DNA from: Candidatus Woesearchaeota archaeon
GTDB lineage: Archaea; Nanobdellota; Nanobdellia; Woesearchaeales; UBA11576
Direction: 5' to 3'
Assembly (NCBI GenBank): GCA_043819495.1
Contig: JBDRET010000047.1
Span: 20,065 to 84,064, forward strand
Length of the DNA: 64,000 nt
The translations under genes were made by a program, and so were the position numbers. Positions 730-60,783 of the stretch are shown one piece after another (the stretch's first letter is position 1; every line of letters begins with the position of its first letter). Below the pieces are notes generated by a model. That model saw nothing but the letters and a program-made list of their open reading frames with translations, ran no database searches and was not told the origin of the DNA.

Positions 730-943
730 GCACCCGTAGCGCAGCCTGGATACTTACGCCAGCATATAACTGCGTGGCCAAACAGCGCGAAACTCTTTAG
801 GGAACTATTGAGTGTGCAGCTGCCTCCTATTTCAAAGCAGGGCTTTGTAATCCTTCAAAAGCTCCGCTTTAGAAGTAAGCAGTAGGTCGGGAGTTCGAAA
901 TGCGAGCGACAATGGCGTTTGCACAAAATTCTCCCCGGGTGCG
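730..943 (+). tRNA. tRNA-Arg(CCU) interrupted by three putative introns (about 753-813, 830-877, 900-929)
   Basis: Hand-folded cloverleaf. Acceptor GCACCCG (730-736) pairs with CGGGTGC (936-942), discriminator G. D-stem GCGC (739-742) pairs with GTGC (814-817); D-loop AGCCTGGATA. Anticodon stem GCTGC (819-823) pairs with GCAGT (879-883); loop CTCCTA..A. Variable AGGTC. T-stem GGGAG (889-893) pairs with CTCCC (931-935); T-loop TTCGAA..T. The exons sum to 75 nt. Confidence 0.6.
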
Positions 944-22586: not shown

Positions 22587-22675
22587 GCGCTGGTAGTATA
22601 GGGGTAGTATCACGGCCTTCCAAGCGTTATGCGCGAAGTGAGCCGTTGGCCTGGGTTCAAATCCCAGCCAGCGCA
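22587..22675 (+). tRNA. tRNA-Gly(UCC) with an 18-nt canonical intron (22623-22640)
   Basis: Acceptor GCGCTGG/CCAGCGC, discriminator A. Anticodon stem ACGGC/GCCGT, loop CTTCCA..A. T-arm CTGGG TTCAAAT CCCAG. TTTTATAAAT lies about 30 nt upstream. Confidence 0.85.
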
Positions 22676-22896
22676 TACAGTTTTATTAGTGTTATAGAAT
22701 CTGGATGGGGCTAGCGCCTTTTTGGGGTAAGCGTGTCCCAGCCAGCGCATTATATAAAGACAAAATCCTGGACGAGCTTGCGAGTACAGATTTTGCCTTT
22801 TAGAATGCTTAAAAACGTCGATGAGCTCGCGAGTCGGCGTTTTTCTTGCATATTCACTTTTTTTCGAGAATCTTGCCTGGCTGCCCTGCCAGCGCA
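22663..22896 (+). repeat. Three direct copies of the tRNA-Gly 3' end: CCC(A/T)GCCAGCGCA
   Basis: Copies at 22663-22675 (in the tRNA), 22736-22748 (exact) and 22884-22896 (one mismatch). Confidence 0.8.
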
Positions 22897-46816: not shown

Positions 46817-46898
46817 AGAATGCTCTGTATTGTGGGCATAAGGGCTCTATTTATAGTTTTGTGTTATGGTGCTGGATATGACTGGTTGAAAAGAAAGG

Positions 46899-47057
46899 CG
46901 CCGCGGGGGGGACTTTCACTGGAAGTCACCATTGTAACCTTCTGTTTCGAACCCCCGTGCCCCGGAGGACACCGGATCATTGCGAACCATAGCTGGTATC
47001 TGAAGAACACAGAGTTCTTAGCAATCCGGCGCTATGGCCAGGCTAAGCGACCGCGGC
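46899..47057 (-). tRNA. tRNA-Ser(GCU) with two introns (canonical 47018-46978; T-loop 46945-46913)
   Basis: Minus strand. Acceptor GCCGCGG/CCGCGGC, discriminator G. D-arm GCU-UAGCCUGGCCAU-AGC. Anticodon stem CCGGA/UCCGG, loop UUGCUA..A. Long variable arm UGUCC-UCCG-GGGCAC. T-stem GGGGG/CCCCC, T-loop UUCGAA..U. The exons sum to 85 nt. Confidence 0.75.
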
Positions 47058-47159
47058 GCTTAAGCAAGTCATGTGAGAAAAAGGTGTATTTAAATTAGTT
47101 TTGTTTTGCTCTCTGATTGTTGAGCATGGTAGAATTTAGGTGTTCAGGATTCTCTCTGA

Positions 47160-49328: not shown

Positions 49329-49441
49329 AGCGGGGTAGGGCAGCCAGGAGTGCCCGAAGGGCTCATAACGCAAAGGTTCCCTTTCCGGAACCTCCTGCGG
49401 AGGTAACCCTTAGGTCGATGGTTCAAATCCATCCCCCGCTA
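49329..49441 (+). tRNA. Initiator tRNA-Met(CAU) with a 38-nt canonical intron (49368-49405)
   Basis: A1:U72 acceptor AGCGGGG/CCCCGCT. D-arm GGGC-AGCCAGGAGT-GCCC. Anticodon stem AAGGG/CCCTT with three G:C pairs, loop CTCATA..A. T-arm GATGG TTCAAAT CCATC. Confidence 0.85.
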
Positions 49442-54351: not shown

Positions 54352-55629
54352 ATGCTCGACATAAGATTCATACGGGAGAATCCTGACAAGGTCAAGGACA
54401 ACATGGACAAGAAGTTCATGGAAGATAAGCACGGGCTTGTAGATGACCTTCTTGTCAGGGATGAGAAGTACCGAAAGTTCCTGCAGGAAGTAGAGAAGCT
54501 GCGTCATGACAGGAATGAGGTCACTGCTAAGATAAGTGAGACCAAGAAAGCTGGCGGTGACATAAAGCCTCTTCTTGATCAGGCAAAAGAGATACCTCAG
54601 AAGATCAAGGAGATAGATGATAAGCTTGCATCACTCAAGGTAGAGATGTTCGAACTGCAGAAGAAGATACCTAATATCCTCCACGAGTCTGTGCCGATAG
54701 GAAAAGACTCTTCTGAGAATGTTGAGATAAAGAAATATGGTGATCCTGTAATCAAGGATTTTGAAGTCAAGAGCCATGTCGATATATGTGAGTCCCTAGG
54801 CATTGCAGACTTTGATGCAGCTTCAAGGGTAGCGGGCAATGGTTTCTTCTACCTGATGGGTGATCTTGCATTGCTGAATCAGGCACTGCTCAGGTTCGGT
54901 ATGGATTTCATGATGCGGAAAGGGTATGTCTTTGTAGAGCCTCCTCTCATGGTGAGGCGGGCTGTCATCGACGGTGTTGTCGATCTCAATTTCTTCGCTG
55001 AGATGGTGTATAAGATAGAAGGAGAGGATCTTTATCTCATCGCGACTTCGGAGCATCCTCTTGTGGGCATGTTCATAGATCAGGTCATAGACGAGAAGAA
55101 GCTGCCTATAAAGATGTGCGGTCTTTCGCAGTGTTTCAGGAAAGAGATCGGTGCGCATGGCATAGATGAGAAAGGAGTCTACAGGACACACCAGTTCAAC
55201 AAGGTCGAGCAGGTCATCATATGCAAGCCAGGTGAGTCTTACAAGTATTATGATGAGCTCCAGACAAATTCTGTAGAGCTTTTCAAGGAGTTAGGATTGC
55301 CGACCAGGGTGTTTGAGTCCTGCTCTGGGGATCTTGGCGACCTTAAGGCGAAGGGTGCAGATCTTGAGGCATGGTCGCCGAGGAAACAGGAGTATTTCGA
55401 GGTAGGATCAGTATCTAACTTGACTGATGCACAATCGCGCCGCTTGAACATGAAGGTCGACAATGGTGCTGAGCGTTATTTCCCTCATACTCTGAACAAT
55501 ACTGCTCTTGCGACTTCACGCACTATGGTTGCGATACTTGAGAATTATCAGAACGCTGATGGTTCGATAACCATACCTGAAGTCTTGAGCCCTTATATGA
55601 ATAATATGGATAAGATGCGTCCTAGATGA
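54352..55629 (+). CDS. serS: Seryl-tRNA synthetase
   Basis: 425 aa. N-terminal coiled-coil arm, TSEHP, CFRKEIGAHGIDEKGVYRTHQFNKVE, NNTALATSR. Confidence 0.92.
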   Translation: MLDIRFIRENPDKVKDNMDKKFMEDKHGLVDDLLVRDEKYRKFLQEVEKLRHDRNEVTAKISETKKAGGDIKPLLDQAKEIPQKIKEIDDKLASLKVEMFELQKKIPNILHESVPIGKDSSENVEIKKYGDPVIKDFEVKSHVDICESLGIADFDAASRVAGNGFFYLMGDLALLNQALLRFGMDFMMRKGYVFVEPPLMVRRAVIDGVVDLNFFAEMVYKIEGEDLYLIATSEHPLVGMFIDQVIDEKKLPIKMCGLSQCFRKEIGAHGIDEKGVYRTHQFNKVEQVIICKPGESYKYYDELQTNSVELFKELGLPTRVFESCSGDLGDLKAKGADLEAWSPRKQEYFEVGSVSNLTDAQSRRLNMKVDNGAERYFPHTLNNTALATSRTMVAILENYQNADGSITIPEVLSPYMNNMDKMRPR

Positions 55630-60184: not shown

Positions 60185-60342
60185 AGGGTCAAGACCGCCT
60201 AGCGAACGTTGGACTGATAAGCGAAAACTATCGCAGTTGGCCCAAGCTCTGCTTGGGAGATTACGAACCAAAGGTTCGAAATGGGCAAACAGAAGAGAGT
60301 CCAGAAGCGATGTCATAAAATTATTGGTAAGTACTTGACCCT
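60185..60342 (+). ncRNA. tRNA-like structured RNA, family copy C (enlarged second arm)
   Basis: 9-bp closing helix AGGGTCAAG/CTTGACCCT. CCTAGCGAAC and GCAGTTGGCC junction strands. Loop CTGATAAGCGAAAAC resembles TGATAGAAGCGATAAC in copy A. Internal helices TGGACT/AGTCCA, CCCAAGC/GCTTGGG, CGAACC/GGTTCG. Confidence 0.45.
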
Positions 60343-60513: not shown

Positions 60514-60597
60514 GCGGGGGTGCCGGAGTGGTCAAACGGGCTACGTTCAGGGCGTAGTAGCTTAGTGCTTACGAGGGTTCAAACCCCTTCTCCCGCA
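60514..60597 (+). tRNA. tRNA-Leu(CAG), no intron
   Basis: Acceptor GCGGGGG/CTCCCGC (one G:U), discriminator A. D-arm GCC-GGAGTGGTCAAAC-GGG. Anticodon arm CTACG-TTCAGGG-CGTAG. Long variable arm. T-arm GAGGG TTCAAAC CCCTT. Confidence 0.88.
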
Positions 60598-60783
60598 GTT
60601 TAATTGTTTTATGTGGGTTACAGCGTCCCGTTGAATGTAGTGAAATGGGACTGGGTTGCGCGTATCAAATGAGCAAGATCATTTGCGAGTCGTTTCAAAC
60701 CCCTTCTCCCGCATTGAACAGAGTGAGATGTGGGGAAGGTTCCAGAAATCTCTGATTTCTGATATCTTCTCCCGCAGTTTAAT
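60578..60783 (+). repeat. Three nested direct copies of the tRNA-Leu 3' end
   Basis: TTCAAACCCCTTCTCCCGCA at 60578-60597 (tRNA) and 60694-60713 (20/20). CTTCTCCCGCAGTTTAAT at 60587-60604 and 60766-60783 (18/18). Confidence 0.85.

Follow-up and report, generated by a model that had tools for sequence, protein, structure and literature searches.

The window, by which we mean the whole 64,000-nt stretch of DNA analysed here, belongs to a Woesearchaeota MAG (assembly G000; 1.68 Mb, 44% GC, 89% complete) and carries on its minus strand, from 47057 to 46899, a block of 159 nt (GCCGCGG...CCGCGGCG) that is a genuine pre-tRNA-Ser(GCU) gene, composed of three exons and two introns (table 1). The 5' part of the block is laid out as GCCGCGG UC GCUU AGCCUGGCCAU AGC G CCGGA UUGCUA, an insert of 41 nt and A UCCGG; the 3' part continues with the long variable arm, GGGGG UUCGAA, an insert of 33 nt and U CCCCC CCGCGGC G. 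When both inserts are removed, ARAGORN calls a tRNA-Ser(gct) of 85 nt with a long variable arm, a 7-bp acceptor stem and the T-loop UUCGAAU, which confirms the class II tRNA-Ser(GCU) with two introns that the initial annotation had proposed at 46899-47057 and upholds the intron limits that it gave, 47018-46978 and 46945-46913. The ARAGORN drawing displays the features of a class II tRNA-Ser, namely GCU in a 7-nt loop, U33 and stems of 7/4/5/5 bp; the variable region of the spliced molecule spans 15 nt with a 4-bp stem, its discriminator is G and its cloverleaf score is the joint third-highest among the genes in the genome scan described below. It is the sole tRNA-Ser(GCU) gene found in the assembly (one match).

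Detection of the gene depends on which insert is taken out. Removal of the T-loop insert alone lets ARAGORN find the same tRNA-Ser(gct) with its canonical intron, while removal of the canonical intron alone leaves ARAGORN without any tRNA call, as does the unspliced 159-nt sequence; the Rfam tRNA model, run on the unspliced gene, gives no match at the gathering score or at E ≤ 10. An ORF of 92 aa lies antisense over the entire gene (46820-47098, plus strand); it is almost certainly spurious and carries a risk of being miscalled in automatic annotation. The window also encodes a seryl-tRNA synthetase, 86% identical to its counterpart in a Woesearchaeota MAG, at 54352-55629 (plus strand), 7 kb from the tRNA-Ser(GCU) gene.

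Table 1. Parts of the tRNA-Ser(GCU) gene, its putative flanking signals and the tRNA-Arg(CCU) gene, in window positions
Feature	Position	Strand	Basis or remark
pre-tRNA-Ser(GCU) gene, 159 nt, 3 exons and 2 introns	46899..47057	-	sequence; ARAGORN on the spliced product
Exon 1, 39 nt: acceptor 5' strand, D arm, anticodon stem 5' strand, loop to A37, anticodon GCU	47019..47057	-	
Intron 1, 41 nt, canonical position 37/38	46978..47018	-	BHB scanner
Exon 2, 32 nt: A38, anticodon stem 3' strand, long variable arm, T stem 5' strand, UUCGAA (nt 54-59)	46946..46977	-	
Intron 2, 33 nt, position 59/60, T-loop split UUCGAA/.../U	46913..46945	-	
Exon 3, 14 nt: U60, T stem 3' strand, acceptor 3' strand, discriminator G73, CCA not encoded	46899..46912	-	
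TTTAAATA box, putative archaeal TATA element, ends 30 nt upstream of the first tRNA nucleotide	47087..47094	-	inferred from archaeal promoter consensus
TTTCTTTT tract, putative oligo-T terminator, 3 nt past the gene end	46889..46896	-	inferred from sequence
tRNA-Arg(CCU) gene, multi-intron, 30-nt intron at 59/60	730..943	+	anticodon arm GCUGC CU-CCU-A...A GCAGU

Splice motifs and splicing enzymes

The geometry of both introns was evaluated with a purpose-written scanner for the bulge-helix-bulge (BHB) motif. Intron 1 forms a strict, textbook hBHBh' motif, in which the central helix UUGC/GCAA (H=4) lies between the bulges UA/A and UG/A, the outer helix has 8 bp (h) and the intron-side helix 5 bp (h', GAACU/GGUUC). 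Intron 2 uses as its outer helix the T stem itself, GGGGG/CCCCC (h=5); its central helix (H=4) pairs U54U55C56G57 with UGAA, including one G.U, and its bulges, A58A59/A and AG/U60, complete a 3-4-3 geometry. The intron-side helix of intron 2 is imperfect, running through C-G, A.A, G-C and A.C before a hairpin of 7 bp, so that the motif is slightly relaxed toward the intron side but still a BHB. When the minihelix of the T arm is folded, the BHB conformer of intron 2 lies at -14.9 kcal/mol vs -16.7 for the minimum free energy (MFE) structure, a gap of 1.8 kcal/mol, and is predicted to be accessible but not optimum. Two points weigh against the BHB reading of intron 2, namely that this conformer is not the MFE structure and that the intron-side helix opens with one pair followed by the A.A mismatch; on the other side, removal of both introns restores a standard cloverleaf in ARAGORN, as is required of introns of the BHB type.

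The initial annotation had also warned that the T-loop intron contains GAAAGUCC- and ACAGAA-like strings which might mislead a search for RNase P RNA. Such strings are present, but even at E ≤ 10 the region has no match to an Rfam RNase P model, and their RNase P reading was rejected. In tRNA-Ser(GCU), GAAAG/UCC corresponds to the 3' strand of the central helix plus the bulge and U60-C61-C62.

Both enzymes required for BHB splicing, EndA and RtcB, are encoded in the genome. EndA is represented by a single gene with N- and C-terminal domains (PF01974, 102 bits, and PF02778, 54 bits; C61:47241-47501), which among solved structures is closest to the Nanoarchaeum equitans catalytic subunit, with the M. 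jannaschii homotetramer next. The RtcB ligase (548 bits; C47:84738-86003) is encoded on the same contig as the tRNA gene, just past the end of the window. Searches of the 89% complete assembly with Pfam at E ≤ 10, and of all its ORFs with phmmer --max, found no second EndA homolog; at that level of completeness, the gene of a second subunit may be missing. Single-subunit EndA enzymes are classically described as strict. That only one EndA gene was found speaks against the proposed splicing, although most introns at 59/60 in this genome retain the strict 3-4-3 core.

On this evidence, it is likely that tRNA-Ser(GCU) derives from a 159-nt precursor with two BHB introns spliced by EndA and RtcB, and that position 59/60 is a preferred, interchangeable landing site for introns; we infer from the sequences both the excision of the two introns in the cell and the route by which such introns spread at the DNA level. 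EndA would cut each intron within the two 3-nt bulges that flank the 4-bp helix, after which RtcB would ligate the three exons into the 85-nt class II tRNA.

Introns at 59/60 across the genome and its relatives

The genome was surveyed with a home-made tRNA scan, anchored on the acceptor stem plus T arm, which allows an insert in the T-loop and up to three BHB introns elsewhere and was checked with ARAGORN. It recovered 39 tRNA genes, set apart from the background by score and exon GC and almost non-redundant in their anticodons, vs 19 above the cut-off of the Rfam tRNA model in the same 89% complete assembly; a scan limited to GC-rich regions recovered only part of the tRNA genes. About 32 of the 39 genes are interrupted (roughly 82%) and roughly 21 have two or more introns, counts in which some boundaries in the 5' half are approximate. 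The anchored scan splits the 5' half unreliably in some genes, and it gave wrong anticodons to the tRNA-Arg and to a Leu-like gene. It also mis-split into two the single intron, of about 40 nt and located in the anticodon loop, of a tRNA(CAU) at 49329-49441 (plus strand; Rfam 48.2 bits). A GGTTCGAA..TCC pattern at 60273-60302 of the window was a false lead and not a tRNA.

Inserts in the T-loop occur in 20 of the 39 genes, and 19 of these yield a BHB in the 59/60 register only. As these 19 include tRNA-Ser(GCU) and tRNA-Arg, the architecture of the former is found in 18 other, non-redundant genes. The T-arm intron of tRNA-Trp(CCA) (G000:C15:491-696, minus strand) sits at 53/54, not 59/60, and is accompanied by two further introns. 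Introns at 59/60 range from 18 to 47 nt (median 30), and 13 of the 19 have AG just before U60. Across all 19, there is covariation between nt 57 of the exon and nt -6 of the intron: A57 faces U in 9/9 cases, while G57 faces C in 8/10 and U in 2/10 (Fisher p=7e-4, a generous value since related introns are not independent). This covariation offers indirect evidence that selection acts on the central helix, that is, that the introns are probably cut.

The comparison with tRNA-Arg, on which the initial annotation relied, needs to be qualified. The tRNA-Arg(CCU), whose D region requires two introns, has the T arm GGGAG UUCGAA / 30 nt / U CUCCC, and its insert does lie at the identical T-loop position; the shared flanking loop, in contrast, is the near-universal UUCRAAU and therefore uninformative. 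The two T-loop introns share only the 7-nt ACAAUGG, with a score of 14 that corresponds to the 95th percentile of shuffles and is not significant. A recurrence in two genes understated the matter, for its scale is far larger. The alternatives then drawn from it, a preferred site of intron gain or intron mobility, are both supported by the 19 genes in 39, by the introns shared between genes and by the turnover among congeners.

A genome-wide alignment of the introns was carried out as an all-against-all comparison of 67 introns with shuffled controls, in which the 99.9th percentile is 20; it found clear families, with the T-loop intron of tRNA-Ser(GCU) outside them. At 59/60, tRNA-Val(CAC) and tRNA-Ser(CGA) have identical introns of 40 nt (score 80), and those of tRNA-Ile(UAU) and tRNA-Glu(CUC) are related (score 27). 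Among introns in the D arm, those of tRNA-Pro(UGG) and a Pro-like gene score 31, and those of tRNA-Gly(CCC) and the same Pro-like gene score 30. At the canonical position 37/38, the introns of tRNA-Ser(CGA) (88 nt; G000:C12:1560-1806) and tRNA-Gly(CCC) (81 nt; G000:C28:7947-8172) score 64 against a shuffle maximum of 21 and are homologous despite the differing anticodons. The intron common to tRNA-Val(CAC) (G000:C8:9712-9915, minus strand) and tRNA-Ser(CGA) (minus strand), genes with three introns each, reads TATCAAAGTGGAGCTTTGATGCTCAAACTTTGTTTGAAAG. For the 33-nt intron of tRNA-Ser(GCU) there is no significant partner in the genome (best score 17, vs 16 for the 99th percentile of shuffles and 21 for their maximum), and no similar intron was found in a non-orthologous tRNA. 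A similar intron in a non-orthologous tRNA, the mark of a transposed intron, is found for other 59/60 introns of this genome, both in the identical Val(CAC)/Ser(CGA) pair and in its Leu-like gene, C61:36557-36771, whose intron is identical at 34/37 positions to the 44-nt one of the tRNA-Ser(GCU) ortholog of G011. Mobility is thus shown for other introns at 59/60, not for the 33-nt intron of tRNA-Ser(GCU).

Orthologs of tRNA-Ser(GCU) were compared in 40 relatives. In three congeners, nt 1-112 of the gene, canonical intron included, are 92% identical, and the match stops exactly at the T-loop intron. At 59/60 the orthologs have introns of 44 nt (G011 and G008), 17 nt (G005), 31 nt (G010), 44 nt (G012) and about 103 nt (G002), all unrelated to the 33-nt intron of G000; those of G006, G016, G020, G032, G037 and G039 have none at this position, and that of G038 is wholly intronless. 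Since the orthologs hold unrelated introns or none, gain, loss or replacement has occurred repeatedly at a single site of one gene within the genus, and different species carry the same intron family in different tRNAs. Allowing up to 3 mismatches, we found no copy of the 24-nt core of the 33-nt intron among 17 other members of the family. Its derivation by deletion from an intron of the G011 type was considered and found unconvincing (local score 15, p=0.03 before correction). Spliced tRNA-Ser(GCU) differs from that of the congener G006 at 4 of 85 positions, two of which form a compensatory pair in the anticodon stem. The Rfam tRNA model scores 53.9 bits with the intronless ortholog of G038 and 45.7 bits with that of G006, which has the canonical intron only, and misses both searched orthologs with a T-loop intron (G011 and G005). 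These ortholog scores serve as an indirect counterpart to covariance-model scoring of the spliced gene. When public genomes were searched for the exact pattern of exon 1, a single distant Woesearchaeota ortholog was obtained.

Origin of the T-loop introns

Why should 59/60 be occupied so often? The T arm and the anticodon arm have the same geometry, a stem of 5 bp closed by a loop of 7 nt. The 5' cut of a BHB falls two nt beyond the 4-bp helix and the 3' cut one nt ahead of the outer helix, and on an arm of this geometry the cuts would fall after loop position 6 and before position 7. Where the T stem supplies the outer helix and U54-U55-C56-R57 one strand of the central helix, EndA would cut after nt 59 and before nt 60, which would make 59/60 the counterpart of 37/38, offset by 22 nt. 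Anticodon bases belong to the exon strand of the central helix at 37/38, where an intron must suit its own tRNA; at 59/60 that strand is UUCR, common to all tRNAs, and introns would be interchangeable between tRNAs. Hence, the site would be preferred and interchangeable because the exon half of the motif is nearly identical in all tRNAs, which would be why about half of the tRNA genes of this genome have an intron there. The tails YGAA-AG would likewise be shared because they face UUCR in every tRNA, and an intron with such an ending should form a valid motif in almost any tRNA gene. The 33-nt intron of tRNA-Ser(GCU), being species-specific, would then have been gained or replaced recently.

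Other explanations have to be weighed against this one. That the gene is a decaying pseudogene, or that it retains the T-loop insert while AGY codons are decoded by another gene, seems highly improbable: although standard tRNA finders give no call, the assembly holds no further match to tRNA-Ser(GCU), the exons are 95% identical to those of orthologs with the compensatory change in the anticodon stem, BHB geometry is kept in both introns, the same architecture recurs in the 18 other non-redundant genes, and the gene is flanked by a TATA-like box and a T tract. We also think it rather unlikely that no mobility was involved, so that the 33-nt insert originated in place, through duplication or slippage for instance, and was tolerated as BHB-forming, its recurrent position reflecting endonuclease selection only. 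This would agree with the lack of a significant relative of the intron in the genome, where its score of 17 lies at about the 99th percentile of single shuffles in 66 comparisons, and of any relative in the 17 family genomes; moreover, its shared 3' end GUGAAAG is forced by the pairing with UUCR. Yet other 59/60 introns are identical or nearly so across unrelated tRNAs and genomes, so that movement does take place at this site, and congeners exhibit intron-for-intron replacement there.

The manner of movement is a separate matter, for 59/60 introns might spread by homologous recombination through the conserved T arm, that is, by gene conversion, and not by reverse-splicing or transposition. 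The T arm is the most conserved stretch common to all tRNA genes, and the identity between the Val(CAC) and Ser(CGA) genes reaches past both intron ends into the T stem (CCCGG UUCRAA ... U CCGGG C), nt 57 being the sole difference. Against this, recombination would have to rely on short flanking homology, about 11 nt 5' of the intron and 7 nt 3' of it, and the related introns of the G011 tRNA-Ser and the G000 Leu-like gene are set in different T stems, GAGGG vs TAGGG. Gene conversion is possible, though on balance doubtful.

Beyond the splicing of tRNA-Ser(GCU) and the preference for the site, a broader proposal can be put forward tentatively, in which our confidence stops a little short of even: 59/60 in Woesearchaeales may be a universal landing pad for small, mobile BHB introns, with gain, loss and replacement active and ongoing between species of one genus under a single-subunit EndA. 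If true, one YGAA-AG cassette could move between any tRNA genes without adaptation, and the need for a heteromeric or epsilon2 enzyme of broad specificity to sustain abundant non-canonical introns would be challenged. The genus provides a natural series for dating and dissecting intron gain, in which the same gene has none or any of at least five unrelated introns at 59/60, and it tests how far a single-subunit EndA supports many non-canonical introns that keep a strict motif.

Relation to other archaea

T-loop introns at 59/60 and the transposition of tRNA introns are already known in other archaea. Position 59/60 is among the known sites of non-canonical tRNA introns (PMC4090602), and ARMAN-2 (Candidatus Micrarchaeum acidiphilum) has T-loop introns in pre-tRNA-Cys(GCA) and pre-tRNA-Pro(GGG) (Fujishima et al. 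2011, PMC3239211), of which the 59/60 intron of pre-tRNA-Cys was cleaved in vitro by the organism's own enzyme (PMC3239211). Like the present genome, ARMAN-2 belongs to DPANN, has BHB-type T-loop introns at 59/60 (and 53/54), some of them beside other introns, and has more than half of its tRNA genes disrupted. Its EndA is the three-unit epsilon2 enzyme with a special loop, whereas here one ordinary two-domain EndA gene was found; the 59/60 intron tested in ARMAN-2 measures 13 nt and has a relaxed hBH motif, whereas those in G000, present in 19 of 39 genes, have 18-47 nt and mostly the full 3-4-3 geometry. In Thermoproteales, according to summaries of Fujishima et al. (2010) in PMC4033280 and PMC4090602, alike introns in unrelated tRNAs have been read as large-scale transposition. 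As summarized there, many tRNA genes of these organisms are, as in G000, interrupted two or three times, at non-canonical sites that include 59/60; Thermoproteales are, however, TACK hyperthermophiles with a heterotetrameric EndA bearing a Crenarchaea-specific loop, in contrast to a DPANN member with one EndA found.

For DPANN, Kaneta et al. (2018, PMC5829648) tie a single-subunit, alpha4-type EndA with an L3 loop to increased disruption of tRNA genes, include tRNA genes predicted in a Woesearchaeota genome and conclude that incomplete tRNA sets point to undetected disrupted genes. The 19 genes found with Rfam vs 39 with the anchored scan fit this picture; T-loop introns of Woesearchaeota are not described gene by gene in the text consulted. 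In the part of the literature available to us, where Fujishima et al. (2010) is represented by summaries, we found no description of the dominance of 59/60 in Woesearchaeota or of intron replacement at one site among congeners. In practice, neither ARAGORN nor the Rfam tRNA model detects half of the tRNA genes of G000, among them the only decoder of AGY serine codons; the tRNA sets obtained by routine annotation of Woesearchaeota MAGs are therefore expected to be badly incomplete and may wrongly suggest dependence on a host.

Two other tRNA genes in the window are accompanied by partial copies of their own 3' ends. In the region 22663-22896, the last 13 nt (CCCAGCCAGCGCA) of tRNA-Gly(UCC) are repeated 74 nt downstream, with a degenerate copy further on; this looks like an integration footprint of the att type, in a gene that lacks a T-loop intron. 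In the region 60514-60713, the stretch of tRNA-Leu(CAG) from the T-loop to the 3' end (TTCAAACCCCTTCTCCCGCA) has a copy of 20 nt placed 116 nt downstream. Since this stretch includes position 59/60, an intron there would split such a target. The idea that T-loop introns guard against integrases finds no significant backing in this genome, where duplicated 3' ends occur near 2 of 19 genes without and 0 of 20 genes with a T-loop intron.

In the order as a whole, 106 of 151 genomes contain the signature GGTTCRAA-N10-40-GRAAGTCC, with 11 matches in G000 and a maximum of 15, vs 0-2 per genome for the reversed control. G041, G075, G089 and G096, which belong to different families of the order, have in common an intron at 59/60 of about 47 nt (TATTGACGCC..GAAG..CAATGCTTCGAACGTCAGTGAGAAAG, with variants), which may be either old and conserved or mobile and widely spread.
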